64,000 nt of DNA from contig CAMTUG010000001.1 in the NCBI GenBank assembly GCA_947084965.1, forward strand, positions 345,293 to 409,292, in the 5' to 3' direction. The translations under genes and the position numbers were made by a program. The first letter of the stretch is position 1. Each line of letters begins with the position of its first letter. The DNA is from an uncultured Parcubacteria group bacterium. GTDB lineage: Bacteria > Patescibacteriota > Patescibacteriia > UBA9934 > CAMTUG01. Of the stretch, positions 8,396 to 44,854 are shown in pieces. The notes beneath the pieces were generated by a model. That model made no database searches, was not told the origin of the DNA, and worked only from the letters and a program-made list of their open reading frames with translations.

Positions 8396-10393
8396 ATGAA
8401 ACGACGCACACATTCTATCCGGCCCCGTTGGATAACATGGGCCACAGCGACCGCCTGTTTCGTTCTGTTCCTGTTTTCGACCGTGGTCGCGTTCCCAAAT
8501 CAGACCTGGAATCGCGTCCCAGGGCTCCCGCCGCTTAGCCTGGCGGATTTTCGTCTCGGCCTTGATCTGCAAGGCGGAGCGCATTTAGTGTACGAGGCAG
8601 ACATGAGTCAGATCGCGGAGGCGGATCGCGACGAAGCGTTGAACGGGGTGAAAGATGTGATTGAGCGCCGTGTCAACGCTTTTGGGGTGGCTGAGCCGCT
8701 CGTGCAGACGACCGTGGTGGACGGTCACTACCGGGTGATCATTGAATTGGCCGGTGTGCTCGATATCTCCGAAGCGATTAAGCAGATCGGAGAGACACCG
8801 ATTTTGGAATTTAAAGAACAGAATCTTGAATATACCGGCGACCTGACGGAAGAACAGCAGGCACAAATTGATGCTGCTAATGCTCTGGAAAAAACCAAGG
8901 CGGACGGGCTCCTTGCTGATGCTCGTTCGGTCACAGATTTCTTGCAATTTGCGACAGACACAGCTGCGGCGGATCCAGAAACACTCGGGGGTGACCTCCC
9001 GTCCGTTTCTGGCGGGGTGTATCAAGCGGTCATTGATGACATTACCAAGAATCGCTACGCGGCAGGCACCGTTCTGCCGAACGTTTATGCACTAACGAAC
9101 AGCTACTCGATCTTCAAGTACGTTGAACCTTCGACAGACACCAACGAAATGCAGCTCTCGCATATTTTGGTCTGTTTTCAAGGGGCGACCGGCTGTGCCT
9201 CTGACCGCGATCAGATCGGAGCGAGTCTGATTATTTCGGAAATCCTTTCCAAGGTGAACGGGGAGAATTTTGCTGATCTTGCCATGCAATACTCGGAAGA
9301 CGGGGCGGCCGAAGCGGGTGGAGATTTGGGCTGGATTCAGCCGGGCGGGACGGTACCTGCCTTTGACGCCGCGGCACAAGCGCTCGCTGTTGGAGCGATC
9401 TCCACATCGGCCGTGGAAACGGAATACGGCTATCACCTGATCTACAAGCGAGGAGAGCGCCCGATCACGACCTATCATCTCCAGCACCTGAGCGTTCGCA
9501 AAACACTGGCTGGTGATCTGTTCCCGTTTGAGCAGTGGCAGAACACCGGGCTTTCGGGAAAGCAGCTAGAAACGGCGCGAGTAGAATTTGATCCAAATAC
9601 TGGCGCTCCACTCGTTTCGCTGAACTTTGATAGTGAAGGCGGAGAACTTTTTGCTGAGCTTACCGGTGCGCACATTGGCGAGCAGATCGCCATTTTCCTC
9701 GACGGAGAAGTGATCAGCGCACCGATGGTCCAGCAGCGCATTAGTGGCGGACAGGCGGTTATCACCGGGGACTTTACCCTGGCCGAAGCCAAATTACTCG
9801 CTCAGCGTTTAAATGCCGGTGCCTTGCCCGTTCCGGTCACTCTCGTTTCTCAGCAAACGGTCGGACCAACGCTCGGACAGGAATCCTTAGCCAAATCGAT
9901 CGACGCCGCGTTGATCGGTTTCGGCCTCGTTGCGCTCTTCATGATTCTGTACTACCGCTTGCCAGGGGCGGTCGCTGTGCTGACCTTGGCTGGCTACGCC
10001 GTCTTGAACTTACTCGCCTATAAAGGCTTGGACGTGACGATCACCCTCGCGGGTGTGGCCGGGTTTATCCTATCGATGGGGATGGCCGTTGATGCAAACG
10101 TCTTGATCTTCGAACGATTGAAGGAAGAGGTGCGAAGCGGCCGCGATGTTCCGTCGGCGCTTGAAGAGGCATTTGTGCGCGCCTGGCCGTCGATTCGCGA
10201 CGGGAACCTAACGACGCTGATCGCTTCGTTTATTCTCTTCTGGTTCTCCACGAGCTTTATTAAGGGGTTTGCCTTGACGCTGTCGATCGGGGTGTTGTTG
10301 AGCATGTTCTCGGCAGTGGTGATCACCCGCGTCGTCTTACGTCTCGCTTCATTCACCGGCGCTCGACGCTTCCCTTGGCTTTTCGGAAAATAG
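8396..10393 (+). CDS. secD: protein translocase subunit SecD with an inserted parvulin-type (PpiC) peptidyl-prolyl isomerase domain
   Basis: SecD head region (LGLDLQGGAHLVYEAD…) and the C-terminal TM bundle are present. Residues ~250-355 (nt ~9150-9460) read as a parvulin domain: LSHILV…FADLAMQYSEDGAAEAGGDLGWIQPGG…EYGYHLIYK. secF follows with a 1-nt gap. Confidence 0.85.
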   Translation: MKRRTHSIRPRWITWATATACFVLFLFSTVVAFPNQTWNRVPGLPPLSLADFRLGLDLQGGAHLVYEADMSQIAEADRDEALNGVKDVIERRVNAFGVAEPLVQTTVVDGHYRVIIELAGVLDISEAIKQIGETPILEFKEQNLEYTGDLTEEQQAQIDAANALEKTKADGLLADARSVTDFLQFATDTAAADPETLGGDLPSVSGGVYQAVIDDITKNRYAAGTVLPNVYALTNSYSIFKYVEPSTDTNEMQLSHILVCFQGATGCASDRDQIGASLIISEILSKVNGENFADLAMQYSEDGAAEAGGDLGWIQPGGTVPAFDAAAQALAVGAISTSAVETEYGYHLIYKRGERPITTYHLQHLSVRKTLAGDLFPFEQWQNTGLSGKQLETARVEFDPNTGAPLVSLNFDSEGGELFAELTGAHIGEQIAIFLDGEVISAPMVQQRISGGQAVITGDFTLAEAKLLAQRLNAGALPVPVTLVSQQTVGPTLGQESLAKSIDAALIGFGLVALFMILYYRLPGAVAVLTLAGYAVLNLLAYKGLDVTITLAGVAGFILSMGMAVDANVLIFERLKEEVRSGRDVPSALEEAFVRAWPSIRDGNLTTLIASFILFWFSTSFIKGFALTLSIGVLLSMFSAVVITRVVLRLASFTGARRFPWLFGK

Positions 10394-10394
10394 T

Positions 10395-11285
10395 ATGCAA
10401 TTTCCCATCATCAAACAGCGAAAGATTTGGTTCGGCTTCTCGGCAATCCTCCTTGTGGCGAGTATCTACGGATTGGTCGCTTACGGATTAAATCTTGGCG
10501 TTGATTTTACTGGCGGGTCGTTGATTGAACTGCGTATTTCGGGAGAAGCATCGAATACGCAGATGCGTGAACTCATCGAATCACAAGGGTTTGGCGAGGT
10601 GCGTGTTCAGGCATCAGAGGGCGGCGATTATCTGATCCGCTTGCAGGCCCTAAACGAAGAACAGCACCAGGCGCTTCTGACGGCCATCGAAACGTCGTTC
10701 GGAGAGACGGAAGAACTGCGTTTCGATTTTGTCGGTCCGGTGATCGGTGCAGAGCTCGCTCGTAAGGCGATCTGGTCCGTGGTTGTCCTGCTCATCCTGA
10801 TTGTGTTGTACGTGGCCTGGGCATTTCGCAAGGTTGCTCATCCTGTTACATCCTGGAAATACGGTGTCCTTACGATGGTCACAGCGTTACATGACGTGAT
10901 CGTGCCACTCGGGGTGTTCGCCTTCCTCGGCCATTTCTACGGGTACCAGGTTGATTCTGCCTTTGTGGCAGCGATTCTCACGATTCTTGGGTATTCGATC
11001 AATGATACGATCGTGGTCTTTGATCGCACCCGTGAAAATCTCGCTCAGCGATCGAGTGAAGATCCGTTCGAAGAGGTCGTCAATCGCGGCGTCAATCAAT
11101 CACTGGCCCGCTCCCTGAATACTACGCTGACAACCTTACTCGCCCTTGTTGCTGTCTACTTTTTTGGAGGGGACACAACGCGTCAATTCGCTCTGGCTCT
11201 CATGATCGGTATCGCCACTGGGGCGTATTCATCGGTTTTCATCGCTTCGCCACTTCTTGTTGTTTGGGAGAAGTGGAAGCGCTAA
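10395..11285 (+). CDS. secF: protein translocase subunit SecF
   Basis: 296 aa with a six-TM SecF pattern, immediately after secD. Confidence 0.85.
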   Translation: MQFPIIKQRKIWFGFSAILLVASIYGLVAYGLNLGVDFTGGSLIELRISGEASNTQMRELIESQGFGEVRVQASEGGDYLIRLQALNEEQHQALLTAIETSFGETEELRFDFVGPVIGAELARKAIWSVVVLLILIVLYVAWAFRKVAHPVTSWKYGVLTMVTALHDVIVPLGVFAFLGHFYGYQVDSAFVAAILTILGYSINDTIVVFDRTRENLAQRSSEDPFEEVVNRGVNQSLARSLNTTLTTLLALVAVYFFGGDTTRQFALALMIGIATGAYSSVFIASPLLVVWEKWKR

Positions 11286-11304
11286 TCAAGATATCCTCAA
11301 ACGG

Positions 11305-11340
11305 CACGGGGCCCTGCGCTCCCGTGTCGTTTGTTTTTGT
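11305..11340 (+). terminator. intrinsic terminator after secF (CACGGG…CCCGTG + TCGTTTGTTTTTGT)
   Basis: GC stem followed by a T-rich run. An extended -10-like TGCTAAAAT follows at ~11339-11347, before the next block. Confidence 0.45.
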
Positions 11341-11359: not shown

Positions 11360-13084
11360 ATGCCTGAGATTGAAATCGACCTTTCCTTTCTTTTCGCCTT
11401 TCTCCAAAGGCCGGACGTTTTTTTAGTCAAGGCGTTTCCGTATGTCGCCTGGATTCCGATCGCGGGAGTGTTGATCTGGGGGTTTTTTGAAGTCTGGAAG
11501 TTCAATCGCCAACACCATTTCCGACACGCGATGAAATACATCCTTTTGGCAATCGATGTGCCAAAGATGACCGAACAGTCGCCACAAGCGGTTGAGCAGA
11601 TTTTTGCTTCTTGTGCGGCGGCCTGGGGTGGAGCAACGTTCAAGGAGCAATGGATCGACGGGGAAGTCGCGCCTGTTTTTAGTTTTGAGCTGGTCTCTGA
11701 TGGTGGATACATTCAGTACTATGTTCGTACCCCGACAAAGTTTCGCGATATGATCGAAGCGGCGATTTACGCACAGTATCCGGATGCTGAAATCAGCGAA
11801 GCGCATGATTATGCCCATGATTGGCCCGAGCAGTACCCGAATGATACGCATGACTGTTGGGGGACGGAACAGAAGTTGAGCCAGCCGTACTACTTTCCGA
11901 TTCGCACCTGGCCGGAGTTCGAGCACAAGCTCTCACAAGAAATTAAAGACCCCGTAGGAATCTGGTTGGAGCAGATTTCCCGCCTTCAACCAGGAGAGGT
12001 GTTTGCCACCCAGATTTTGTGCATGCCGTTAGGTGAAGCGAAGACGAGTTGGACCAAAAAAGGGGTGGAGTATATTTATAAAGAGATCGGAAAAGAATCT
12101 AAGGACGCGCATAAAAAGGCTGGGATTCTGGGCGAAACGCTCGGTCAACTTTCTTCCTTGCCAATCGAAGCCGCTCAGCAATTTGGGGTGGCGATGTTTG
12201 GGGGCGGAGCCGATGCGCACGAAGAAAAGAAGGAAGACCCTTGGAAATTCTTGCGTTCTACACCGATCGACAAGGAACGTTTGGATAAAGTGACGGAGAA
12301 GATTCAAAAGCCGGCGATGTTGGTGAAGATTCGTCATGCGTATGTCGCGAAAAAAGAGGTGTATAAAAAGGGTCCGCGTGATAAGATGATCGCGTCCATC
12401 ATGTTCCAATACATGAACCCAAACACGAACTGGTTTGGACGCGTCGGGAAAATTACGCCGAAGACAGATTATTTTTGGCAGAACTGGTCGTTGGAAAAGC
12501 GCAAGCGAAGACTGATTAAGTCCTACATCCACCGTGATGAAGAATATGGACTCCATGGCAATATTCTGAACGTGGAAGAATTGGCTTCACTCTGGCACTT
12601 CCCAACGATCACCATCCTTGCTCCGTTCGTGAAAAAGACCGTTGCCAAGCGTGCGGAACCACCGGTGCAGTTGCCGTATGAGGAACCGGGCGCGGCTGAT
12701 TTTACTGGTGCAATAGCGGGCAAAAAGCCTTCGCGTTTGGCGATGCCGGTGGAATTTATTGAGCCAACGATACCTGGTCGTCCGCGTACTGCTTCGCCAG
12801 AAGCTCATCATGATGAACACGGCGCTGCGGTGGCTCACCAGCATCCAGAATCAAAGGAACATCATGCAGAAGCCCCACGGACGCACGAACGTAAAGCCGC
12901 TCCGCCGATCGGGCTTCCGGTTGAGCCGGATGTCGCGCCACATGTGCCGCAGACCCCAGGGCATCCTGCTTCCGTCCCTGAACATGCTGTTCCTGCGCCA
13001 AAGGCCCAGGCCCCGAGTCATCCATCCGCAACCGACGGCATTCCTGACGAAATCCGTCGGATGATTGACCCCAACTTCGAATAG
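11360..13084 (+). CDS. membrane-anchored N-domain protein of a split VirD4/TraD-like coupling-protein system, with a His/Pro/Ala-rich low-complexity tail
   Basis: N-terminal TM helix. The central region aligns with the N-terminal ~380 aa of the fused protein 47328..49847 (FELVSDGGYIQYYVRTPTKFRDMIEAAIYAQYPDAE vs FEIVAHEKVIKFYVTVPRRYQEFVEQQITAQHPDAF; EELASLWHFPT vs EEMASLFHLPL). The C-terminal ~100 aa are His-rich and low-complexity. Confidence 0.6.
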   Translation: MPEIEIDLSFLFAFLQRPDVFLVKAFPYVAWIPIAGVLIWGFFEVWKFNRQHHFRHAMKYILLAIDVPKMTEQSPQAVEQIFASCAAAWGGATFKEQWIDGEVAPVFSFELVSDGGYIQYYVRTPTKFRDMIEAAIYAQYPDAEISEAHDYAHDWPEQYPNDTHDCWGTEQKLSQPYYFPIRTWPEFEHKLSQEIKDPVGIWLEQISRLQPGEVFATQILCMPLGEAKTSWTKKGVEYIYKEIGKESKDAHKKAGILGETLGQLSSLPIEAAQQFGVAMFGGGADAHEEKKEDPWKFLRSTPIDKERLDKVTEKIQKPAMLVKIRHAYVAKKEVYKKGPRDKMIASIMFQYMNPNTNWFGRVGKITPKTDYFWQNWSLEKRKRRLIKSYIHRDEEYGLHGNILNVEELASLWHFPTITILAPFVKKTVAKRAEPPVQLPYEEPGAADFTGAIAGKKPSRLAMPVEFIEPTIPGRPRTASPEAHHDEHGAAVAHQHPESKEHHAEAPRTHERKAAPPIGLPVEPDVAPHVPQTPGHPASVPEHAVPAPKAQAPSHPSATDGIPDEIRRMIDPNFE

Positions 13085-13085
13085 T

Positions 13086-15065
13086 ATGGAGGACCACGTT
13101 CACACACATCACGGCGCTTCGCCGGACACGACGGGGCACGAAAAAGCGGGCCCGCCGCCGTACGATCACGATCATGAAAATGACATCATCTTTTTTGGTC
13201 GGACAAATTTTCGTAATCAGCTGAAAAAGTTCGGGATCAAAACCGATGATCGCCGCCGTCACATGTATCTGATCGGAAAGACCGGTGTGGGGAAGTCGAC
13301 GTTGCTGGAAAACATGGTGTTGGCCGATATCTACATGGGCCATGGTATCGGGCTGATCGATCCACACGGAGACTTTGCCGAAAAGATCGTTGATTTTATT
13401 CCGCCGCATCGGGTTAATGACGTCGTTTATTTTAACCCGGCGGACGCGGACTATCCGGTTGCCTTTAATATTCTCGAGTCGATTAATCCGGATCATAAAC
13501 ATCTTATTGCATCTGGGCTGATGGGGGTGTTTAAAAAGATCTGGCCGGACGTGTGGAGTGCACGTATGGAGCACATCATGAACATGGCGATCTTGTCGCT
13601 CCTCGAAATGCCGGGCAATACGTTGCTTGGAATTAATCGCCTGTTGGTAGATCAGGATTTCCGTCGTCACTTGATCGTGCAAATTAAAGATCCAGTCGTG
13701 AAGTCGTTCTGGATTACGGAGTTTGAGCAGTGGGAAGTAAAGTTTCGATCAGAAGCGATCGCCCCGATTCAAAACAAAGTTGGACAGTTTTTGTCGACCT
13801 CGCTTATTCGCAACATCGTCGGTCAGCAAAAGTCAACGATCGTTCCGCGAAAGATCATGGACGAACGCAAAATTTTCATCATCAACTTGGCCAAAGGACG
13901 CGTGGGGGAGGACGCCTCGCGCCTAATCGGTGGGATGCTTATTACCAAGATGCAGTTGGCGGCGATGGAGCGCGTGGACATTCCAGAGCCTGATCGTCAG
14001 GACTTCTACCTCTACATCGACGAGTTTCAAAACTTCGCCACAGAATCCTTCGCCAACATCTTGTCCGAGGCGCGTAAATATCGCTTGGCCCTGATCATGG
14101 CGCATCAGTACATCGAGCAGTTGGAAGAGGAAGTTGCCTCCGCCGTATTCGGGAACGTTGGGACGATGGTTGCCTATCGCGTCGGGGCGGGGGATGCGGA
14201 AAAGATGGCCACGGAATTTGCTCCGCGGTTCACGGAAGAGGACTTGGTCAACTTGCCGAAGTTCAACGTTTATTTGAAGTTGATGATCGATGGGATCGCA
14301 TCGGATCCATTTTCAGCAACGACCTTGCCGCCGATCAGTGCGCGTACCAATTCAACGGATGTGGTCGTTGCCGCTTCGCGTCGGCAGTACGCGCGTCCGC
14401 GCGAAGATGTAGAGGCGTCAATCGTTTCGTGGAGCGAAACAAAACGCGCCTTGACGCCGGAAGCGGCTGCGGCCTTACCGCCGCCAAAGATGGGCGGAGC
14501 AAAAAAGTTGAACGAATACGACTGTACGCGCTGCGGCAAGAAGATGCTGCTGCCAGTTGAGTTGGATCGCTCGCGGCCGATTTACTGCGAAACGTGCATT
14601 GAGATCGTTCGTGCAGAACGCAAGGCAGGGAAGCCGGCCGATGGGGCACCTGCGGCCAAACCGACGGATGCGAAGCCGGTAACTCCGGCGCTGCCAAAAC
14701 CGGCCGATTCTTCAGCTCCGGCTCGTCCGGAGCCGCCAAAAGTGGTGGAAACGGATCTAGCGCAAAAAGATGCCGCTGCCCCTGTTTCTCTTACCGAGCT
14801 CAATAAACCGGCCGCGCCGATTATTAAGGCGACTACTACGGAGCCGAAAGTTCCATCGACCCCGAGCGTTGTTCGCCCCGCGCCGACAAGCCCGGCTGGC
14901 GGTTCGAGTTCTGGCGGAGAGACTGAAGAGCAGAAAAAGCGCCGGCGCCGTCGACGCCGGTCTGGTTCTGGTGGCGGAGGTGGATCATCATCTCCTTCAG
15001 GTGGTGGATCCTCGACTCCAGCACCAACCAAGCCGTCGGGTGGTAATGATTTATTTCCTTGGTAA
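13086..15065 (+). CDS. VirD4/TraD/TrwB-like (type IV coupling protein family) P-loop ATPase, copy 1; carries a C-terminal Cys4 zinc-ribbon and an Ala/Pro/Lys-rich, poly-Arg, Gly/Ser-rich disordered tail
   Basis: Walker A YLIGKTGVGKST, DPHGDF (DPxGD-like), Walker B YLYIDEFQNF, and ALIMAHQY. The zinc-ribbon CTRCGKK…RPIYCETC is followed by low-complexity sequence ending in RRRRRRRSGSGGGGGSSS. Start at MEDHV, right after the TAGTATG junction. Confidence 0.75.
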   Translation: MEDHVHTHHGASPDTTGHEKAGPPPYDHDHENDIIFFGRTNFRNQLKKFGIKTDDRRRHMYLIGKTGVGKSTLLENMVLADIYMGHGIGLIDPHGDFAEKIVDFIPPHRVNDVVYFNPADADYPVAFNILESINPDHKHLIASGLMGVFKKIWPDVWSARMEHIMNMAILSLLEMPGNTLLGINRLLVDQDFRRHLIVQIKDPVVKSFWITEFEQWEVKFRSEAIAPIQNKVGQFLSTSLIRNIVGQQKSTIVPRKIMDERKIFIINLAKGRVGEDASRLIGGMLITKMQLAAMERVDIPEPDRQDFYLYIDEFQNFATESFANILSEARKYRLALIMAHQYIEQLEEEVASAVFGNVGTMVAYRVGAGDAEKMATEFAPRFTEEDLVNLPKFNVYLKLMIDGIASDPFSATTLPPISARTNSTDVVVAASRRQYARPREDVEASIVSWSETKRALTPEAAAALPPPKMGGAKKLNEYDCTRCGKKMLLPVELDRSRPIYCETCIEIVRAERKAGKPADGAPAAKPTDAKPVTPALPKPADSSAPARPEPPKVVETDLAQKDAAAPVSLTELNKPAAPIIKATTTEPKVPSTPSVVRPAPTSPAGGSSSGGETEEQKKRRRRRRRSGSGGGGGSSSPSGGGSSTPAPTKPSGGNDLFPW

Positions 15066-15068
15066 TGT

Positions 15069-16523
15069 ATGGAAGACGATCTCCAAGGTGGGTTCGGATC
15101 ATTTGCAGCGCCAACAACGCCGCCCGAGTTTGAGGCGTTCGTTGCTCGTCGCCATGAGCCGCCAGAAACTGTTCCGGTCAAAGGGTCGATCCCTGACGCG
15201 GACATCTCCCTATTTGGTCAAACAAATTACAGCCGCGGGTATGCCGGCGAACGGTATATTTTCGGTATCAAGCGCAAGGATCGCCGCCGTCATCTCTACG
15301 TTATTGGAAAGTCTGGCGTGGGAAAGACCAAGCTGCTCGAACAGTTGATTCGGGCGGACATCTTTTTTGGCCACGGCGTCGGAGTGATCGATCCGCACGG
15401 AGATTTGATCAACTCGATGCTCGAGTTCATTCCAGAGAATCGCATCAACGACGTGGTGGTGATCGATCCGGCCGATCGTGATTTTCCGATTAGCTTCAAC
15501 CCGATCGCCAACGTGGCTGAAGAGGACAAGCACATGGTCACCGACTCGATGATCGAAATTTTCAAAAAGCAGTTTGCGTCGGATTGGTCGCCACGTATTG
15601 AACACTTGCTGCGTTTTTCCACGCTCGCCATGATCGATTACCCCAAAGGAACGATGAACGGGATGGTTTCTTTGCTCTCGAGCGGGCCGTATCGTTCCAA
15701 GGTGATTGAGCATATTAAAGATCCGGTCGTGCGTCGTTTCTGGGCGATCGAATTTCCAGAGTGGTCACAGCGCTATGACGCTGAAGCGGTGTCGCCGCTT
15801 TTGAACAAACTCGGTCAGTTGCTGGCGGACCCATTGATGCGCAACATTTTTGGACAGACAGAATCGAAGATCGATCTGTACGACATCATGCAGAAGAAAA
15901 AGATTCTCCTCGTCAACTTGTCCAAAGGACGCGTTGGTGACGAAAAATCGGCGTTCTTCGGTGCGGTGCTTGTGACGAAGTTGTACCAAGCATCAATGCA
16001 GCGCATTCGCTTGGCAGAAAAAGATCGTCTGCCGTTTTATCTGTACGTTGATGAATTTCAAAACATCGCTACCAAGACGTTTGAAAATATTTTGGCCGAG
16101 GCGCGCAAATTCGGATTTTGTTTGACCGTGGCGAACCAAAACTTGTCACAGTTATCGCCGTCCTTGCGCTCGTCCTTGTTTGGAAACGTCGCTTCGATCA
16201 TCGTTTTCCAAATCAGTGCTGAAGACGCTGATCTGATGAGCAATGAAATGAAGCCGATCTTTGAAACACAAGACATGATCAACCTTTCTGAACGTGAAGT
16301 GTATGTCAAAATGACGATCGATGGTCGCCGCTGGGATCCGTTCTCGGCCGAAGTGCTCCCCGTGACCGCTCCGCGTCATGCCCCGTTTACGGAAGCGATC
16401 ATGAAGCAATCCCGCGAGCTGTATGCCAAACCGCGCGACGTGGTGGAGCGTGAACTAGAAGGTGGCGCGGTCGAAGAGCAAAAAGCCGCCCCGGTCATCA
16501 GCGCCGACGATATTATTGTATAA
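15069..16523 (+). CDS. VirD4/TraD/TrwB-like P-loop ATPase, copy 2 (tandem paralog without the zinc-ribbon/IDR tail)
   Basis: YVIGKSGVGKTKL, DPHGDL, YLYVDEFQNI, LTVANQNL. Also starts MED…. Confidence 0.75.
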   Translation: MEDDLQGGFGSFAAPTTPPEFEAFVARRHEPPETVPVKGSIPDADISLFGQTNYSRGYAGERYIFGIKRKDRRRHLYVIGKSGVGKTKLLEQLIRADIFFGHGVGVIDPHGDLINSMLEFIPENRINDVVVIDPADRDFPISFNPIANVAEEDKHMVTDSMIEIFKKQFASDWSPRIEHLLRFSTLAMIDYPKGTMNGMVSLLSSGPYRSKVIEHIKDPVVRRFWAIEFPEWSQRYDAEAVSPLLNKLGQLLADPLMRNIFGQTESKIDLYDIMQKKKILLVNLSKGRVGDEKSAFFGAVLVTKLYQASMQRIRLAEKDRLPFYLYVDEFQNIATKTFENILAEARKFGFCLTVANQNLSQLSPSLRSSLFGNVASIIVFQISAEDADLMSNEMKPIFETQDMINLSEREVYVKMTIDGRRWDPFSAEVLPVTAPRHAPFTEAIMKQSRELYAKPRDVVERELEGGAVEEQKAAPVISADDIIV

Positions 16524-16543
16524 TCAAGAGGTATCCGATACGA

Positions 16544-16567
16544 TAGGCGGGGTCACGTACCCCGCCT
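16544..16567 (+). promoter_or_regulatory. GC hairpin (GGCGGGGT-cacgt-ACCCCGCC) + TTT in the only >2-bp gap of the block; possible attenuator or processing site
   Basis: Perfect 8-bp stem between ATPase copy 2 and the first array gene. Confidence 0.3.
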
Positions 16568-16581
16568 TTCACGCAAAAAAT

Positions 16582-18312
16582 ATGTCCAACACCCCCAACT
16601 ACGACGCCAAGGTTCAAGCGATTCTCGACGCGACTCAGCCGGGGGAGAGGACGTGCGCGATTACGGGGGAGAAATGGGTTCAGGACGACGAAGAGCTTCG
16701 CTGGTACAAAGAGTTTAACGTCCCACCGTCGGCCCATGCGCCGTACACACGGATGCAGTGTTTTACATCGTTTTTTCGAAGCGGACAGTGGTGGTGGAAT
16801 AAACATCCGGTGACGGGAAAGCCCCTTATCTCGTCGGTGCACCCGGCGTGCGGTGTCCCTGTTCTACCGGACAAAGAATGGCATCAGAAAGATTTTCAGG
16901 AGGTGCAGTCTGAAGTCGATCTTTCGCGATCGTTCATTGATCAGATGTTTGAGCTGCGGAAACGCGTTCCGGCCGCAGCGCATGGAAATTATCAGGAGCC
17001 GGAGAATTCGATCGCCGTTGCTTCGTTTGGCGACGTCAATTCGTATTTTATGGTGGCGAGCAAAGGGAAGAATTGTTTCTTCAGCATCGTGGTGTTGAAC
17101 GGCGAGAATTCATCCGAGGTGTACAACAGCGAATCGATCACCGACAGCTATCACGTCATTCACTGCGAGCGGATGTTTAATTGTCAGTACGTGCGCGAGT
17201 CAAAGGATTGTCTCAACGCGCTTTTCTTGTTTGATTGTCGCAATTGCGAGTTTGTTTTCGGTGGATCGAATCTACGCAATAAAAAGTACGTGTGGTTCAA
17301 CGAACAATTAACGCAGGAAGAATGGGAACGTCGTCGAGCCGAAGTGAACACCGCTTCACGGTCGGCGATGCAACCACATCTCGAACGCTTCGAACAGATG
17401 ATTCAGGACGCGGTCTGGCCAGAAAATTTTAACATCAAATCAGAGAACTGCGTCGGTGAATATCTGACTAACTGTGAAGACAGTCGCTTTGTTTACTATG
17501 CCGACGGCGGCGCCCGTAATAACTACTGGATCGCTTGGTTAATTGGCAAGGCCGAACACAACGCCTTTGTCGCCGATCCGGCTAGTTCGCAAGATACGTA
17601 TTGCTCGACCGCGCTTTCGAGCTGTTTCAATACCAAGTTCTCTGTCTATTCCGTGCGCTGTAAAGATGTCGAATATTGTCTTGAGTGTTATGACTCGGAA
17701 TACTGCTTTGGATGCGTCGGCTTGCGTAAGAAGAGGTTCTGTATTTTGAACAAGCAGTACACCGAATCTGAGTATTGGCCAATGATCGACGCGATCAAGT
17801 GTGCGATGATCGATCGAGGGGAATATGCCGAAGGAGTTCCTCCGAAGTTTTCGCTCGGCTGGTTTCCAGAATCTGGCGCGGCCAAATATTATCAGTCGAC
17901 AGAAGAGTTTGGGCGCAGGATCGGTGCCAACGTATTTGATCCTGCATCTGAAGGAGCGTACGGCGACGAATTGATGACCGCCCGCGAGGTACGCGACGTT
18001 TCGCAAATCCCAGACGATGCCAAGGAATTGGATGGCTGGGCAGGTGTTGCTTTATTCGATCCGGAATTTAAGCGCCGGTATTCTTTGCTCGCGCCCGAAA
18101 TCGCTTTGTACCAAAAGCTGAAGATCGCTCCGCCGAACACACACTTCATTGATCGCGTTCATAAGTACATTCGCCTCGGCAACGCTCCAATCTTCCTCGA
18201 GGCCTCCTGTGCAAACTGCAGCAAGCAAGTGACGATCGCCAAAAATCCAACGTACACCAATCGCAAAATCTACTGCACCGAGTGCTACGTGAAGTACTTG
18301 GAAAGCAAATAA
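16582..18312 (+). CDS. Cys-rich paralog family protein, member 1 of 10 (uncharacterized family)
   Basis: MSNTPNYDAKVQAILDA…FDCRNCEFVFGGSNLRNKKYVWFNEQLTQEEWERRR…EYCLECYDSEYCFGCVGL…CANCSKQVTIAKNPTYTNRKIYCTECY. Start placed at the conserved MSNTP motif (tracked ORF begins upstream at 16462). Confidence 0.7.
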   Translation: MSNTPNYDAKVQAILDATQPGERTCAITGEKWVQDDEELRWYKEFNVPPSAHAPYTRMQCFTSFFRSGQWWWNKHPVTGKPLISSVHPACGVPVLPDKEWHQKDFQEVQSEVDLSRSFIDQMFELRKRVPAAAHGNYQEPENSIAVASFGDVNSYFMVASKGKNCFFSIVVLNGENSSEVYNSESITDSYHVIHCERMFNCQYVRESKDCLNALFLFDCRNCEFVFGGSNLRNKKYVWFNEQLTQEEWERRRAEVNTASRSAMQPHLERFEQMIQDAVWPENFNIKSENCVGEYLTNCEDSRFVYYADGGARNNYWIAWLIGKAEHNAFVADPASSQDTYCSTALSSCFNTKFSVYSVRCKDVEYCLECYDSEYCFGCVGLRKKRFCILNKQYTESEYWPMIDAIKCAMIDRGEYAEGVPPKFSLGWFPESGAAKYYQSTEEFGRRIGANVFDPASEGAYGDELMTAREVRDVSQIPDDAKELDGWAGVALFDPEFKRRYSLLAPEIALYQKLKIAPPNTHFIDRVHKYIRLGNAPIFLEASCANCSKQVTIAKNPTYTNRKIYCTECYVKYLESK

Positions 18313-18313
18313 T

Positions 18314-20044
18314 ATGTCCAACACCCCCAACTACGACGCCAAAGTCAGAGCGATTCTCGACGGGCTTACACCCGGCGAGCGTGTTTGTTCGCTCACAGGC
18401 GAGAAGTGGATGATGACCGAGGAAGAGATCGGTTGGTATAAAAAGTTTAATGTGCCACCGAGCACAGTTGCGCCGATGAATCGGGTTAAGCTGACCACTC
18501 TTTTTGGTACGGGATTTGGCTGGTGGTGGAATAAGCACGCCAAAACAGGGAAGCCGTTGTTGTCGTATGTGCATCCGGCCAACGGAATCAAAGTTCTGCC
18601 TGATCCAGAGTTTTTTGAACAGGACAATACGGACAAAGCGCGTGAGTACGACACAGAACAGAGTTTTTTTGATCAGATTCGTGCCCTTCAGCTTGAAGTT
18701 CCCTTTACGGCTTGGCGTTCGTTGACTGTGCCGGTCAATTCGATCGCTCTTTTGTCGCAAGGGGACGAGAACAGCTATTTCGTCACCGCCTGTAAATCCA
18801 AAAATTCATTCTACGCCTATTCGGTTGATGACATGGAAAACTCGGCCGAAGCGTTCGAATCCAAGTTTGTTGTTAATTCCTACAACGTTCTTAACTCGCA
18901 GCGCATTCATAACTGTAAGTTTGTGCGTCAGTCGTATGACTGCATGAACTGTAGTTTTGTTTTTGACTGTCGTAACTGCGAGTTTGTCTTTGGTGGCTCA
19001 AACCTGCGCAACAGAAAGTACGTATTTTTCAACGAGCAGTTGAGCAAAGAGGGCTGGGAAGCGCGCGTTGCCGCAATCGACCTCGGCAGCCGTCAGGTTC
19101 TCGAGGAATATATCGCCAAGTTCCAAGATCTGGTGGGACATAAAGCGGTCTGGCCAGAGAACTTCAATGAACAAGTCGAGGATTGCATCGGTGAATACTT
19201 GAATAAGTGCCGACAGTGTAAGTATCTGCTGGCAGGACATGGATCAGCCAATAACTACTACGGCGCGGTCTTTATCGACAACAGCGAAAATAATGCCTTC
19301 GTCGGCGGGGCGATTGGAAGCTTCGACAACATCTATTGTCATGCTCCGCTCAAGTCACGTGGTTGTAAGTACGTGCATTCAACGTACGAATCACAGAACA
19401 TGGAATACTGTATGCAGTGCTACAACTGTGAAAATTGTTTTGGGTGTGTTGGTCTGATCCGCAAGTCGTTCTGCATCTTCAATAAACAGTACACGCCAGA
19501 AGAGTATTGGAAGCGCGTCGATGAGTTAAAATGTGCCATGCTTGATCGCGGAGAGTACGGAGAATTCTTCCCAGCGAAGTTCTCCCCGAGCTACTGGGCC
19601 GTTTCTGTCGGGTTGCTCTATCAGATCGAAGATCCTGAAGCGATTAAGCTCGGAGCGCTCATGCTTGATCCGGAATCGGCCGGCGCGCTTGGGGAATTGC
19701 CGGTCGGGGCGGTGATGCGTTCATCTGATGATCTGCCAGATAACATCAAAGAGGTTGGTGAGGACTGGGGTGGTCAACCGATGATGGATCCGGTTGAAAA
19801 GCGTCGTTACGCCCTGTTAAAGCCCGAGATCGCCCTCTACAAGCAGTTAGGGGTCGCTGTGCGCGCTATGCACCCAATGAAGCGTCTTCGATCGATGGTT
19901 TTTGAAGCCAACTCGGGGAACTTCATCGACTCAACCTGCGCCAAGTGTGGCAAAGCAGTGACGGTAGCAACCAATAAAACATATCCCGACCGCGTCATCT
20001 ACTGCCGCGAGGATTACCTCAAATTCATCGAACAAAACGGCTAG
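18314..20044 (+). CDS. Cys-rich paralog family protein, member 2 of 10
   Basis: MSNTPNYDAKVRAILDG…. The terminal motif is CAKCGK…IYCREDY, with the fourth Cys replaced by Asp. Confidence 0.7.
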   Translation: MSNTPNYDAKVRAILDGLTPGERVCSLTGEKWMMTEEEIGWYKKFNVPPSTVAPMNRVKLTTLFGTGFGWWWNKHAKTGKPLLSYVHPANGIKVLPDPEFFEQDNTDKAREYDTEQSFFDQIRALQLEVPFTAWRSLTVPVNSIALLSQGDENSYFVTACKSKNSFYAYSVDDMENSAEAFESKFVVNSYNVLNSQRIHNCKFVRQSYDCMNCSFVFDCRNCEFVFGGSNLRNRKYVFFNEQLSKEGWEARVAAIDLGSRQVLEEYIAKFQDLVGHKAVWPENFNEQVEDCIGEYLNKCRQCKYLLAGHGSANNYYGAVFIDNSENNAFVGGAIGSFDNIYCHAPLKSRGCKYVHSTYESQNMEYCMQCYNCENCFGCVGLIRKSFCIFNKQYTPEEYWKRVDELKCAMLDRGEYGEFFPAKFSPSYWAVSVGLLYQIEDPEAIKLGALMLDPESAGALGELPVGAVMRSSDDLPDNIKEVGEDWGGQPMMDPVEKRRYALLKPEIALYKQLGVAVRAMHPMKRLRSMVFEANSGNFIDSTCAKCGKAVTVATNKTYPDRVIYCREDYLKFIEQNG

Positions 20045-20045
20045 T

Positions 20046-21785
20046 ATGAGTAACACCCCCAACTACGACGCCAAAGTCAAAGCGATTATCGACGGCATTC
20101 AGCCGGGCGCACGGGTGTGTTCGGTGCTCGGAGAGAAGTGGGAGATGACGGAGAAGGAGATCGATCTCTACCGTCGATTCAATATGCCGCCGCGGACGGT
20201 CGCAACGAACACACTGTGGAAACAGATGGCGTATTACGATGCCGGCTATCAGTTTTGGTGGAACAAGCATCCGGACACAGGAAAGCCTGTGCTTTCGTTT
20301 CATCATCCCGCTTCAGGTGTAAAAGTGCTTCCAGATGCAGAGTGGCACGCGCGAGACTTTAGCACGATCAACATCGATATCGATCCTTCGAAGCCATTCT
20401 TCGAGCAACTGCGTTCGTTGCAAGTTCAGGTTCCACTGCTTGCTACATTTAGCCGCGTCGAACCAGAAAACTCCATCACCTTGTTTTCGTTTGGTGATCG
20501 TAACAGTTACTTCACCTTTGCCTGTACGTCGGAGCGTACCTTTTTTGCTACCGGCGGATTTGAAGCGCAAGGGTCATCGCTGCTGTTCACCACGAATCAA
20601 ACGACGGACTGTCACCATGTTTTTAAATCTCAACGCATCTTCAAATGTCGTTATGTGCGTGAATCGCTTGACTGCATCGACAGCGCGTTCCTGTTCGATT
20701 GTCGTAACTGTCAGAACTGCTTCGGGGCGAGCAACAAGCGCAATCGGCAGTATGTCTTCATGAATGAGCAGTTGACGAAGGAAGAATACGAACAGCGCAT
20801 GAGTCAGATTGATTTAAGCAAGCGCAGTGAAGTGGAAACGTGGTCAAAGGCGTTTGATGAACTCTTAGCACGTGATGGTGTCTGGCCGGAAAACTTTAAT
20901 GTCAATTGTCAGGATTCGACCGGTGAATATCTCACGGGCGCGGTACGCTGTGATACTTGCTATGACTCGGCGGATGCGCCGAGCGATCAGTATCACACCT
21001 GTTGGAGTTATGGGGTCAATAACAATAATGCCTTCATGTGGGGCTCGGTCGATAGCACGGACGGGTACATGGTTTGTTCCTGTCCAAACTCAAACCAGAC
21101 GAAGTTTTCGTATCGCTCGTTCCGGTTAGATAACTGCGAGTACTGTTTCATGTGTGCGGACTTGCGCGATTGTTTCGGTTGCATCGGCTTAAAGAAAAAA
21201 CGGTTTTGTATTTTTAACAAGCAATACGAAGAGGAGGAGTATTGGCGTCTGGTCGACGAAATAAAATGTGCCATGCTCGAACGCGGGGAATATGGTCAGT
21301 ATTTTCCAACTTCGATGGCGACGACGTTCGTGCCGGAAGGCGGAGCAGTTGTGTACTGCGGGGCGACGCCAGAAGAGTTGCAAAAGCTCGGCGGGCAAAC
21401 GTTCGGGGCGGAAGACATGGATGCTACGGGTACGGGCCGGATCGACCCATCAAAAGCGCGTCGCCGTGAGGACATTCCAGATGCGATCGATGACCTTGGC
21501 GACGAATGGATCGGTGTACCGATCTACGATGAGGTGTCTGGACGGACGTTCGCCTTTTTAAAGCCAGAGGTCGAACATTATCGCCGCTTACGCATCGCTC
21601 CTCCGAATACGCACTTCATTCGTCGTATGCATGAGGTATCAAGTGCGGGACAGCGTGCCTGTTTGCAAAACGCTTCCTGTGCGCAGTGCAGCGCTACATT
21701 TATCGTAGCCAAGAATTTCCGCTATCCGGACCGCCGCATCTACTGCAAGGCGTGCTACACTGCCTTCATTGAAAAGAACGGCTAG
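20046..21785 (+). CDS. Cys-rich paralog family protein, member 3 of 10
   Basis: MSNTPNYDAKVKAIIDG…FDCRNCQNCFGASNKRN…CAQCSATFIVAKNFRYPDRRIYCKACY. Confidence 0.7.
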   Translation: MSNTPNYDAKVKAIIDGIQPGARVCSVLGEKWEMTEKEIDLYRRFNMPPRTVATNTLWKQMAYYDAGYQFWWNKHPDTGKPVLSFHHPASGVKVLPDAEWHARDFSTINIDIDPSKPFFEQLRSLQVQVPLLATFSRVEPENSITLFSFGDRNSYFTFACTSERTFFATGGFEAQGSSLLFTTNQTTDCHHVFKSQRIFKCRYVRESLDCIDSAFLFDCRNCQNCFGASNKRNRQYVFMNEQLTKEEYEQRMSQIDLSKRSEVETWSKAFDELLARDGVWPENFNVNCQDSTGEYLTGAVRCDTCYDSADAPSDQYHTCWSYGVNNNNAFMWGSVDSTDGYMVCSCPNSNQTKFSYRSFRLDNCEYCFMCADLRDCFGCIGLKKKRFCIFNKQYEEEEYWRLVDEIKCAMLERGEYGQYFPTSMATTFVPEGGAVVYCGATPEELQKLGGQTFGAEDMDATGTGRIDPSKARRREDIPDAIDDLGDEWIGVPIYDEVSGRTFAFLKPEVEHYRRLRIAPPNTHFIRRMHEVSSAGQRACLQNASCAQCSATFIVAKNFRYPDRRIYCKACYTAFIEKNG

Positions 21786-21786
21786 T

Positions 21787-23514: not shown

Positions 23515-23515
23515 T

Positions 23516-25249: not shown

Positions 25250-25250
25250 T

Positions 25251-26996: not shown

Positions 26997-26997
26997 T

Positions 26998-28683: not shown

Positions 28684-28684
28684 T

Positions 28685-30415: not shown

Positions 30416-30416
30416 T

Positions 30417-32144: not shown

Positions 32145-32146
32145 GT

Positions 32147-33883: not shown

Positions 33884-33884
33884 T

Positions 33885-34529
33885 ATGCATCAACGCGTTA
33901 CATTCAACACGACAGACGGGGTTGAGATCGTTGGTAATTTGTATCGTGGTGGGGCGGGGAGATTTGTGATTCTGCTCCATATGCGCCCTTCAACAAAAGA
34001 AGGATGGGAACTGCTTGCCACAAAACTGCAAGAACTGGGGACGACTGTGCTGGCGATTGATCAGCGCGGGCATGGAGAATCGACGATGCATGGGACGTTG
34101 AATTACGAGAACTTTTCGGACGAAGAAAGTCGAGCCAAGATTTTGGACGTCGAAGCGGCATTCGTGTTCCTCACGTCCCTCGGCGCGACGGAGGAGAACA
34201 CCAGCGTGATCGGCGGATCGATCGGGGCAAACTTGGCGATTCAGTTTTTGACTGAGCATCCCGGGATGAAAAAAGTCGTCGCCCTTTCACCCGGTTTGCT
34301 CTATCGCGGAGTATCGACGGACGACAAGGTTGTGAGGCTCGGGGCTGATCAACACATCTTGTTGGTTGCAAGCGATGACGACCAACATCGAGCGTACGAA
34401 GGCGCTCAAAAGCTCCACGAATTAAATCCAAGTCAGACGGAGCTGGTGCTCGTGAGCGGCCTCGGTCATGCGGAGGCGATGTTTGATAAAGACCCATCAC
34501 TCGCAGATAACGTGATCGCCTGGTTATGA
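33885..34529 (+). CDS. alpha/beta-hydrolase fold protein (dienelactone-hydrolase-like)
   Basis: GxSxG nucleophile elbow VIGGSIGANLAI. Terminal His in GLGHAEAMFD. Begins 1 nt after array member 10. Confidence 0.6.
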   Translation: MHQRVTFNTTDGVEIVGNLYRGGAGRFVILLHMRPSTKEGWELLATKLQELGTTVLAIDQRGHGESTMHGTLNYENFSDEESRAKILDVEAAFVFLTSLGATEENTSVIGGSIGANLAIQFLTEHPGMKKVVALSPGLLYRGVSTDDKVVRLGADQHILLVASDDDQHRAYEGAQKLHELNPSQTELVLVSGLGHAEAMFDKDPSLADNVIAWL

Positions 34530-43314: not shown

Positions 43315-43370
43315 ACTGGGCTTAAGTGAATCTCCGCCGGTTACACAAGCTGTGCTATACTATTCCCACT

Positions 43371-44472: not shown

Positions 44473-44847
44473 ATGGCCACAAAGTTGATTATTCAAATCA
44501 TTGAGCCGGACAACTATCTCGCCGGCATTTATGGCCGCAAGTTTGAAGCAGAAGGCTGGAAAGTACTCATCGCCGAGAATTTTGAGGAAGCAGAAAAACA
44601 GCGCTTAAAGGTTAAGGTTTCCGCTATTATTCTTGAACCAGATATCGACATCAAGGCCGCAGAGAACGTTTTAAAAAGCTTGCGCAAGGATCCGGCGACA
44701 GCAACGATTCCGCTCCTTATTTTTTCAACGATCGCCGAAAAGGCCGAGATCGCCAAGATGAAAAAGGCCGGCGCTAACGCCTATCTGCTCAAAGGGCATT
44801 TTGTCCCGAGCGAGGTTGTGCGCAAAGTTAAATCCATGTTACTCTAA
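44473..44847 (+). CDS. receiver-domain-like protein (atypical: EPD in place of the DD acidic pair)
   Basis: 124 aa with a CheY-like fold pattern (…AIILEPDIDI…IPLLIFST…AYLLKG) but non-canonical acidic-pocket residues. Confidence 0.45.
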   Translation: MATKLIIQIIEPDNYLAGIYGRKFEAEGWKVLIAENFEEAEKQRLKVKVSAIILEPDIDIKAAENVLKSLRKDPATATIPLLIFSTIAEKAEIAKMKKAGANAYLLKGHFVPSEVVRKVKSMLL

Positions 44848-44854
44848 TAGTCGT

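Follow-up and report, generated by a model that had tools for sequence, protein, structure and literature searches.

A widely conserved secretion-type ATPase of an ultra-small bacterium has gained a second copy and ten tandem cysteine-rich genes, and we find that this linkage of ATPase and array recurs in several classes and in several gene orders, while the zinc-finger motif that the two have in common offers no explanation for it. The window, by which we mean the whole stretch of DNA that was analysed, comprises 64,000 nt from an uncultured Parcubacteria group bacterium (Patescibacteria). As first described from the letters alone, an N-domain gene (11360-13084) and two tandem ATPase genes, here called ATP1 (13086-15065) and ATP2 (15069-16523), lie upstream of the array (ARR, 16582-33883), and all are co-directional on the + strand. 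A functional link between the ATPases and the array is well supported; a ribbon-to-ribbon docking of one onto the other is not supported. The array proteins may be cargo of the ATPases or may be their partners.

The N-domain protein has 574 aa and carries DUF8128 (PF26449) in precomputed annotation, as do its homologs. It is laid out as hydrophobic N-terminal helices, a fold of ~400 aa resembling the N-terminal domain of VirB4, and a disordered Pro/His-rich tail. Its AF2 model has a pLDDT of 76 overall and >90 over most of aa 40-250 and 300-410, and when it is searched with Foldseek the top 12 matches are VirB4 chains in all 12 cases. A third ATPase gene of the window, ATP3 (47328-49847, + strand, 839 aa), joins a DUF8128-like N-domain and a T4CP-like ATPase in one protein, and the DUF8128 protein aligns with its N-terminal 400 aa at 26% identity (E 4e-23). 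This fusion indicates that N-domain and ATPase act as one unit, with the soluble part of the N-domain on the cytoplasmic side. ATP3 lacks both a ribbon and an adjoining array, just as had been noted before.

The ATP1 reading frame opens at a TTG at 13065, from which we number its residues. The P-loop ATPase core spans approximately aa 40-460, with Walker A at nt 13275-13298 and Walker B at nt 14007-14033, and the motifs quoted in the initial annotation are all present (Walker A as GKTGVGKS or GKSGVGKT, DPHGD and YLY(I/V)DEFQN). A C-terminal extension is unique to ATP1, again as described. This tail holds CTRCGKKMLLPVELDRSRPIYCETC, a treble-clef zinc ribbon of the form CxxC-x17-CxxC (aa 487-511, nt 14523-14597), and it ends (14934-15062) in a poly-Arg/Lys patch (KKRRRRRRR, nt 14934-14960), a Gly/Ser linker and a terminal DLFPW (nt 15048-15062). 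Among 24 ATP1 orthologs C487, C490 and C511 never vary and C508 almost never; the ribbon occurs in 71 of 88 complete ATP1-type proteins. The basic patch and DLFPW are conserved in Uhrbacteria-type orthologs, and ATP1 of other classes ends in KPG(Q/E)x(I/V)xF(D/E). The homologs of ATP1 number at least 8000 among the matches listed, and those from Uhrbacteria and other Patescibacteria are annotated as 'type IV secretion system DNA-binding domain-containing protein'. ATP2 (484 aa) is a ribbon-less T4CP-like paralog with intact Walker A and B and an acidic tail ending in DDIIV. Its identity to ATP1 is 44% (E 3e-135), and it belongs to a distinct clade whose members all score better against ATP2 than against ATP1, by >100 bits, and all lack the ribbon.

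The initial annotation had assigned these ATPases to the VirD4/TraD/TrwB type, which holds for the ATPase domains by sequence but not for the partner N-domain with its VirB4 N-terminal fold. Besides the P-loop domain with Walker A and B, all three ATPases match PF10412 and PF12696 above threshold (ATP1 41.2 and ATP2 37.1 bits for PF10412, Pfam cutoff 20.5; 27.4 and 28.9 bits for PF12696, cutoff 22), and TrwB is the sole solved structure found by sequence. Unlike T4CPs, however, neither ATP1 nor ATP2 has a transmembrane domain at its own N-terminus, the anchor being the separate DUF8128 protein (fused in ATP3); T4SS channel genes and a relaxase are absent nearby; scores fall far under every NCBIfam T4CP equivalog cutoff (e.g. 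54 vs 250 bits); and ATP1 ends in a zinc ribbon, a basic patch and a terminal peptide, none of them a T4CP feature. As in VirB4/TrwK, an N-terminal domain precedes a C-terminal RecA-like ATPase that is akin to T4CPs, and ATP3 in particular has VirB4-like length and layout. Here, in contrast, the two parts are encoded by two genes (11360-15065), the ATPase domain scores higher on T4CP than on VirB4 models, the Pfam CagE_TrbE_VirB match is absent, and so are VirB3, VirB6 and VirB8 neighbours, none of which Pfam finds in the window. VirD4-like T4CP homologues occur at about two per Patescibacteria genome, are rarely near virB4 and were described as 'possibly exapted' (PMC12102498). Since there are about two copies per genome and no virB4 nearby, the present ATPases appear to correspond to these 'orphan' homologues, and the canonical Patescibacteria locus with VirB4 and TrsD (PMC12102498) is probably a different locus from this one.

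The array consists of ten tandem paralogs of ~561-581 aa, which start at 16582 (the first ATG), 18314, 20046, 21787, 23516, 25251, 26998, 28685, 30417 and 32147 and align to the first member at 34-47% identity. The family is large (3630 clusters at 50% identity). Each protein begins with a degenerate zinc-finger module and continues through a beta-solenoid core and a helical region to a ribbon at its C-terminus; treble-clef modules stand at one or both ends, and two per end in distant lineages. The AF2 model (pLDDT 93.9, pTM 0.91) predicts a solenoid resembling curli (CsgA), insect and plant antifreeze proteins and the heads of trimeric autotransporter adhesins, but only ~100 of 576 residues align, sequence similarity is undetectable, and these fibre and surface proteins differ from the ARR proteins, in which treble-clef modules are added at both ends and a signal peptide is not evident. 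Reading the ARR N-termini by eye, we see neither a Sec-type signal peptide nor a TM segment. The paralogs vary most in solenoid coils, at aa 161-200 and 301-360.

SecD (8396-10393) and SecF (10395-11285), both on the + strand, are kept as the upstream neighbours of the module, in agreement with the Pfam annotation of two relatives: the order SecD-SecF-DUF8128-ATP1 is found at 41-42 of 80 species loci, and DUF8128 followed by ATP1 at ~62 of 80, in many classes. In the gap between SecF and the N-domain gene lies a terminator-like hairpin (11298-11333, + strand; 14 pairs, 8 of them G-C, then TTTTTGT), recognised by consensus match only, which suggests that the N-domain, ATPase and array genes form a transcription unit separate from SecDF. 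The downstream end of the backbone is marked by BacA/UppP (34526-35317, + strand, by Pfam). In relatives without an array, BacA follows ATP1 after a gap of 2-12 nt, so that the block 15069-34529 is an insertion relative to them; one relative (L102) has the order ATP1-ATP2-ARRx2-BacA, and the window has ATP1-ATP2-ARRx10-hydrolase-BacA. The presence of the ATP2 and ARR block and its copy number differ among close relatives.

That homologous arrays elsewhere are linked to such ATPases is borne out by metagenome loci. Among array-centred loci of at least 12 kb, 16 of 35 contain such an ATPase, against an assumed chance of ~8% (binomial p ~3e-9), and where the upstream edge of an array can be observed (22 cases), such an ATPase flanks it in 11. 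In other lineages arrays are most often adjoined by ATP2, which flanks or interrupts them at 16 metagenome loci, and its co-occurrence with ARR across the 80 species loci has an odds ratio of 36 (Fisher p = 0.002). Loci of Uhrbacteria-like, Kerfeldbacteria and Paceibacteria type repeat the adjacency, in three orders (ND-ATP1-ATP2-ARRn, ND-ATP2-ARRn-ATP1 and ND-ATP1-ARR4-ATP2-ARR4), and this variability argues against plain inheritance of one arrangement. The linkage has exceptions in both directions: six loci with single or paired ARR genes (L088, L130, L131, L133, L142 and L160) have no ATPase within 10 kb, and the retrieved DNA of three ATP2 loci (L033, L059 and L074) contains no ARR gene.

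The explanation we favour, to which we give an even chance, has two layers. In the first, the membrane-anchored DUF8128 protein and the VirD4/TrwB-type ATP1 together make up a split VirB4-like ATPase that is Patescibacteria-wide, with ATP3 as its fused form in the same window and with the PF23477-type ribbon and basic patch belonging to the ATP1 tail itself. The second is a lineage-variable accessory block between ATP1 and BacA, made of ATP2 and tandem ARR genes, in which ATP2 would join or dock onto the membrane-bound motor and confer specificity for ARR proteins. These would be its clients, whether exported or assembled cargo or co-assembling partners, and their conserved terminal zinc-finger modules the likeliest recognition handles. 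The explanation stands on gene content, homologies, predicted folds, conserved synteny and the insertion, and from these we infer physical contacts and a direction of action (export versus cytoplasmic assembly). The absence of an evident signal peptide or TM segment, the confident beta-solenoid and the variable coils fit a client or cargo role. As an organisational analogy only, type VII secretion, with its FtsK/SpoIIIE-type EccC/EssC, also sets a membrane-anchored multi-ATPase motor beside amplified, diversified families without signal peptides; unlike it, the present locus lacks WXG100-type substrates, a YxxxD/E signal and genes for EccB, EccD or MycP, and its ATPase domains are T4CP-type. 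Several points count against our explanation. The window shows no recognisable channel component. Multi-Cys zinc fingers are more usual in cytoplasmic than in exported proteins, and the pore of a hexameric ATPase is ill suited to a folded solenoid with bound zinc. In addition, the T4CP homologue of Ca. Southlakia epibionticum is dispensable for epibiotic growth (PMC12102498).

Some of the same features could be read in terms of nucleic acids. The ATPase domains match the DNA-transfer families TrwB_AAD_bind, T4SS-DNA_transf and TraG-D_C ('TraM recognition site') and, weakly, CedD/CedB, and the treble-clef finger and KKRRRRRRR of the ATP1 tail might bind DNA or RNA for a nucleic-acid translocase; the ARR proteins, with their terminal treble-clef modules and no evident signal peptide, would then be cytoplasmic nucleic-acid-binding or substrate-loading accessories, in the manner of the relaxosome proteins recognised by T4CPs, and not cargo. 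We regard this as unlikely: relaxase, origin-of-transfer and competence genes are all missing from the module, Patescibacteria have few relaxases in general (PMC12102498 counts 109 in its dataset), the variable-coil solenoid core resembles surface and fibre proteins and not known DNA-binding folds, and the conserved synteny partner SecDF is protein-export machinery.

The motif common to ATPase and array had first suggested a docking or recognition module on the ATP1 tail matched to the array ribbons, from which co-occurrence and co-evolution would be expected. Both tails do match PF23477 (zf_Tbcl_2)/TIGR04272, a family that includes zinc-binding small proteins of Methanosarcina mazei, the array tails at 11-28 bits. 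The ATP1 tail has exactly the family's CxxC-x17-CxxC spacing and aligns to the model, and many ATP1 orthologs are flagged PF23477 in precomputed annotation. Within the full-length proteins, however, the window ribbons reach 19-20 bits, under the Pfam cutoff of 27, and the CxxCGK...R.IYCxxCY ending ascribed to every array member is not general: only members 2, 5 and 10 of the ten have CxxCGK, the spacer is x18 (x19 in member 9) vs x17 in ATP1, and members 2, 5 and 10 end in CxxD instead of CxxC. With an HMM of ATP1-ortholog tails, 7 of 10 array tails outscore at least 497 of 500 shuffles in which the Cys positions are held fixed; in the reverse direction an array-tail HMM gives the ATP1 tail 12.0 bits vs 2.6 +/- 2.9 for shuffles, a score that 14 of 2000 shuffles reach. 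The similarity thus beats Cys-fixed shuffles, but it is not specific to the pair, the generic Pfam model scoring the array tails as well or better (mean 15.5 vs 11.8 bits for the ATP1 model). Judged by sequence, the ATP1 and array tails are members of one zinc-finger family with no closeness beyond that membership, which explains little because the family has no known function. Zinc binding has been demonstrated for archaeal CxxC-x17-CxxC members (PMC12704099), and the ATP1 and ARR ribbons may bind zinc likewise.

When a ribbon HMM is run against 2.2 Mb of related DNA, taking every ORF of 40 aa or more, it picks out 80 ATPases, 51 ARR proteins and no unrelated genes; this ribbon type is confined there to three settings: fused to ATP1, in a stand-alone double-ribbon gene beside it, and at ARR termini. 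In L013 and L015, for example, ATP1 has no ribbon, and the gene shortly after it, of 110-118 aa, has PF23477 in two copies (97 and 79 bits). Such confinement is what docking would lead one to expect, but its central prediction, co-occurrence, has already failed. An ATP1 ribbon is present in 14 of 18 cases with arrays and 57 of 69 without (Fisher p = 0.73), and four array-linked loci have a ribbon-less ATP1. Almost all Patescibacteria have a ribbon-bearing ATP1, and in 75 of 80 species loci there is no array closer than 10 kb, array-less status being judged from 10-kb neighbourhoods only. Within one lineage the ATP1 ribbons look identical with or without an array (L033 vs L058), and arrays travel with ATP2, which never bears a ribbon. 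Docking is therefore very unlikely in our estimate; the common ribbon is one domain family that repeatedly accompanies the ATPase, and it neither evolved for the array nor predicts it.

Variation of the block between close relatives and the diversified paralogs would also suit a module for conflict or defence, in which a HerA/FtsK-type ATPase and its sensor or effector paralogs merely landed by ATP1, and PADLOC does return ATPase-level matches (mad8 at 1e-15 to 1e-18, HerA and DndH). We give this reading little credence, as those matches are limited to the generic ATPase core, ARR and DUF8128 match nothing, no effector domain such as a nuclease or toxin can be recognised, and no relatives were found in viral contigs. 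Moreover, ATP2 is a close paralog of ATP1 and the block sits beside DUF8128/ATP1 in distant classes in differing orders, which speaks for a block that works with the motor rather than one that landed there at random. Most improbable of all to us is that there is no functional link, with generic ribbons and an array duplicated locally at a permissive site: PF23477-type ribbons do occur in unrelated archaeal small proteins (PMC12704099), the window ribbons score under threshold and some ARR genes have no ATPase nearby, but the adjacency across lineages, its excess over chance and the co-occurrence of ATP2 with ARR amount to a recurrent synteny that argues strongly against it.

In this Uhrbacteria-type patescibacterium, the genes of interest lie on the forward strand, immediately downstream of SecD (8396-10393) and SecF (10395-11285). 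They begin with a gene for a DUF8128 protein, which we call the N-domain protein (11360-13084), and continue with two tandem coupling-protein-like (T4CP-like) ATPases, ATP1 (13086-15065; its ORF begins at TTG 13065, and the ATG is the start of the public protein P0001) and ATP2 (15069-16523). These are followed by an array of ten tandem cysteine-rich paralogs of about 576 aa (16582-33883; here ARR), an alpha/beta hydrolase gene and BacA (34526-35317), all on the same strand. A third ATPase, ATP3, lies at a distance, between CysS and DnaX (47328-49847). Because the intergenic gaps within the N-domain/ATPase/array module are only 1-58 nt, the module fits a single transcription unit. Between SecF and the N-domain gene sits a strong terminator-like hairpin (11298-11333; 14 pairs, 8 of them G-C, then a T-run), which suggests that SecDF and the ATPase/array genes are probably transcribed separately despite their conserved synteny. 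A promoter scan gave matches no more numerous than in shuffled sequence.

What kind of ATPases are these? The motifs quoted for ATP1 and ATP2 in the initial annotation (Walker A, Walker B and DPHGD) are present, and the two proteins share 44% identity. ATP1, ATP2 and ATP3 score 41.2, 37.1 and 39.4 bits with PF10412 (cutoff 20.5) and 27.4, 28.9 and 26.8 bits with PF12696 (cutoff 22), and ATP2 and ATP3 reach 38.7 and 36.1 bits with PF02534 (cutoff 20.1). They thus share with the T4CPs (VirD4/TraD/TrwB) an FtsK/HerA-superfamily nucleotide-binding domain, its Walker motifs and matches to the T4CP profile models. However, a T4CP carries an N-terminal transmembrane anchor in its own polypeptide, whereas ATP1 and ATP2 are soluble core from the start and the hydrophobic helices belong to another polypeptide, the DUF8128 protein (aa 9-57 of its AlphaFold model, in which N-terminal helices precede an alpha/beta domain). 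The module also differs in having no encoded type IV secretion genes or relaxase, since VirB4, VirB6 and other T4SS or relaxase Pfam families are absent from the scanned ORFs of the 64-kb window, and in missing the NCBIfam T4CP equivalog cutoffs: the highest score, 54.2 bits, is with NF045973 (cutoff 250), and the other models give 22-47 bits (cutoffs 366-800).

The N-domain points to a second relationship. DUF8128 (PF26449) is assigned, in precomputed annotation, to the window's own N-domain protein (P0388) and to nearly all of 120 listed homologs; a literature search returned no paper mentioning it. Its predicted structure resembles the N-terminal domain of VirB4. The DUF8128 protein aligns with the N-terminal part of ATP3 (26% identity, E 4e-23), so that ATP3 is the same domain joined to an ATPase. 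In layout the unit is therefore VirB4-like, with an ATPase domain that is T4CP-like. Given this fusion, the soluble part of the DUF8128/ATPase unit must be cytoplasmic. Unlike in VirB4, the N-domain and ATPase are two genes at 11360-15065 and form one polypeptide only in ATP3, and VirB4 models match weakly (TIGR00929, 20.8 and 14.3 bits against 643; NF045975, 17-33 against 590).

ATP1 belongs to a widespread backbone. It has more than 8000 homologs, many flagged with the zinc-ribbon family PF23477 in precomputed annotation. A survey taking one genome per species yielded 80 ATP1 loci, spanning Uhr-, Magasanik-, Buchanan-, Falkow-, Kerfeld-, Doudna-, Wildermuth-, Wolfe-, Nealson-, Nomura- and Paceibacteria. 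The N-domain gene lies immediately 5' of ATP1 in about 62 of the 80, SecD-SecF lie upstream of the N-domain gene in 41, and ARR genes occur within 10 kb of ATP1 in only 5. Across 2,918 Patescibacteria genomes, 5,713 T4CP (VirD4-like) homologues have been counted, 148 of them near virB4, and described as 'possibly exapted' (PMC12102498); these orphan VirD4-like ATPases, roughly two per genome, lie outside the VirB4 secretion locus, which epibiotic growth requires (PMC12102498). Judging by this copy number, the ATPases of the window appear to be such orphan homologues.

Now we consider the zinc ribbon, which the initial annotation proposed as a docking module shared between the ATP1 tail and the array proteins. 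Of the three ATPases ATP1 alone has the C-terminal tail, with the ribbon CTRCGKKMLLPVELDRSRPIYCETC at aa 487-511, and ATP3 lacks it, as had been proposed. The further statement that every array member ends in the same motif was too generous: CxxCGK occurs only in members 2, 5 and 10, and the spacer between the two CxxC pairs is x18 in the array (x19 in member 9) against x17 in ATP1. Even so, the resemblance exceeds that of shuffled sequence. An HMM of ATP1-ortholog tails places 7 of the 10 ARR tails ahead of no fewer than 497 of 500 shuffles with fixed cysteine positions, and the reverse comparison yields 12.0 bits, where shuffles score 2.6 +/- 2.9. Both kinds of tail match one curated family, PF23477 (zf_Tbcl_2; cutoff 27 bits) / TIGR04272 ('CxxC-x17-CxxC'; cutoff 36 bits), at sub-threshold scores in whole proteins: the ATP1 ribbon scores 19.6 and 19.1 bits with the two models, and ARR member 1 scores 19.8 bits with PF23477 as a whole protein and 27.7 as an isolated tail, the other isolated tails reaching 11-17 bits. 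The family definition of two CxxC pairs 17 residues apart is followed by ATP1, whereas the ARR copies deviate in spacing (x18/x19) and, in three members, end in CxxD. Since the ARR tails score higher with the generic Pfam model (mean 15.5 bits) than with the ATP1-specific one (11.8), the two sets of tails would seem to belong to a common domain family with no added mutual closeness. Zinc binding has been demonstrated for archaeal members of the PF23477 family only (PMC12704099).

The distribution of the ribbon marks it as a feature of ATP1. In 24 ATP1 orthologs three ribbon cysteines are invariant and the fourth nearly so, and the ribbon is present in 71 of 88 complete ATP1-type proteins when the species and metagenome surveys are pooled. 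At two loci, L013 and L015, ATP1 has no ribbon and a gene of 110-118 aa just downstream (12108-12464 and 11982-12314, respectively) encodes two bona fide PF23477 copies scoring 97 and 79 bits; this is a ribbon fission/fusion pattern independent of ARR genes. One finding speaks for a real connection between ATPase and array: when 2.2 Mb of related DNA was scanned with a ribbon HMM, taking every ORF of 40 aa or more, the hits were 80 ATPases and 51 ARR proteins and no unrelated gene. The ribbon type therefore seems to accompany ATP1 in three forms: as part of the protein, in a separate gene next to it, and at the ends of ARR proteins.

If the ribbon were the reason for the link between ATPase and array, ribbon-bearing ATP1 should be found preferentially with arrays. 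It is not: the ribbon occurs in 14 of 18 ATP1 proteins with arrays and in 57 of 69 without (Fisher p = 0.73), and at four array-linked loci ATP1 is ribbon-less. Co-evolution of ATP1 and ARR ribbons was also considered and rejected, as ATP1 ribbons look alike in array-linked and array-less loci of the same lineage. The ribbon as the basis of the association is thus not supported. It is not peculiar to the ATPase in front of the array; it is common to a motor of housekeeping-like character.

What actually accompanies the array is ATP2, the paralog that has no ribbon. Linkage of homologous arrays to such ATPases does hold elsewhere, with a T4CP-like ATPase in 16 of 35 array-centred metagenome loci of at least 12 kb (p ~3e-9 against an assumed chance rate of 8%) and flanking 11 of 22 observable upstream array edges. 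The flanking ATPase is usually ATP2, which forms a distinct clade, ribbon-less throughout, and ATP2 and ARR are associated in the species survey too (odds ratio 36, p = 0.002). The gene order itself varies (N-domain-ATP1-ATP2-ARRn, N-domain-ATP2-ARRn-ATP1 and N-domain-ATP1-ARR4-ATP2-ARR4). Comparing the window with L004, L006, L012, L102, L161 and the P0119 locus, we find that array-less relatives have ATP1 and BacA separated by 2-12 nt, that L102 reads ATP1-ATP2-ARRx2-BacA and L161 ATP1-ATP2-ARRx4, and that the window reads ATP1-ATP2-ARRx10-hydrolase-BacA. ATP2 and ARR, with the hydrolase (15069-34529), are a variable-size insertion between ATP1 and BacA; no integrase was recognised by Pfam within the inserted block.

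The array proteins form a large family (3,630 clusters at 50% identity) whose profile matches no PDB sequence at E <= 1. Pfam and NCBIfam give nothing for the whole proteins beyond the weak ribbon match, and the structure prediction is confident (pLDDT 93.9, pTM 0.91). In distant lineages each end of the protein carries a double treble-clef module, PF13451 then PF23477, and the C-terminus reads ...RPEIVYCE.CYQQEV with the canonical x17 spacing; the window copies have lost most cysteines of the N-terminal module, and it is in the solenoid coils that the paralogs diverge most. On reading, the sequences show no evident signal peptide or TM segment. A literature search on cysteine-rich paralogs of Uhrbacteria, or on CPR bacteria with TraD and a zinc ribbon, found nothing relevant. 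A phage tail-fibre origin was dropped, there being no ARR relatives among IMG/VR viral contigs. PADLOC matched only the generic ATPase core, with nothing for ARR or DUF8128, and a defence reading was therefore not adopted.

The earlier proposal is therefore largely right as an observation, and the functional link that it drew between ATPases and array is well supported because the synteny recurs; its ribbon-based reason is not supported. In the best working model, ATP2 would fit the DUF8128/ATP1 motor to its clients, the ARR proteins, which may be cargo or partners. A fuller version, which we consider unlikely as a whole, is an undescribed CPR protein-delivery or fibre-assembly pathway, in which ATP2 would tune a split VirB4/T4CP-like motor (DUF8128 and ATP1), the treble-clef termini would be the targeting signal, the diversified beta-solenoid ARR proteins would be exported or assembled for host-cell contact, and the ATP1 ribbon and the stand-alone ribbon proteins would be built-in regulators at the same receptor site. 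Orphan VirD4-like ATPases can now be seen as VirB4-like in architecture, with a DUF8128 N-domain, split or fused, usually with a PF23477 ribbon, and within a SecDF-linked backbone conserved across classes. Large beta-solenoid zinc-finger arrays are accompanied in several lineages by a dedicated paralog, and so provide concrete candidates for clients. Should the ARR proteins be cargo or surface fibres, they would constitute a new host-interaction route in a vast uncultivated radiation; if not, a conserved, testable ATPase-partner pair is still defined.

Several smaller features accompany these genes. A CutA-like gene (by eye; divalent-cation tolerance protein) of about 101-108 aa lies beside ATP2 or ATP1 in seven distant ARR-linked loci (L058 9197-9502, L123 675-980, L141 9902-10222, L145 2639-2944, L146 5652-5957, L148 17843-18148 and L149 11849-12175); the window has no copy. 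Given the many putative zinc sites of ARR proteins, this neighbour is suggestive. Within the array, the ribbons of members 2 (18314-20044), 5 (23516-25249) and 10 (32147-33883) end in CRED, CMDD and CIED; with Asp exactly at the fourth-ligand position, they may be Cys3-Asp zinc sites. In member 7 (26998-28683, 561 aa), most of the conserved N-terminal 'ERVCxLTGEKW...EEI' module is lost through a deletion of about 15 aa.

In the ATPases, Uhrbacteria-type ATP2 has ANQN after Walker B (about 16120-16150), where AHQY is near-invariant in ATP1 and in ATP2 of other lineages; Walker A and B are still intact in the ANQN proteins. Uhrbacteria-type ATP1 ends in a poly-Arg patch and (D/E)(L/I)FPW (14934-15062), ATP1 of many other classes in ...KPG(Q/E)x(I/V)xF(D/E), and ATP2 in an acidic linker with EPLI or (D/E)IIV (16506-16520); these extreme C-termini, conserved among the ATP1 and ATP2 orthologs in L001-L160, may be docking peptides. 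On either side of ATP3 lies an ORF that Pfam does not match (46788-47324 and 49890-50489), and PilM (43326-44471) and a pilin-like gene (44801-45346) that has an N-methylation motif are a few kb away. Finally, SecD of L161 and of the P0119 locus contains an inserted parvulin-type PPIase (Pfam Rotamase), and the same insert can be read by eye in SecD of the window (8396-10393; …GGDLGWI…YGYHLI…).
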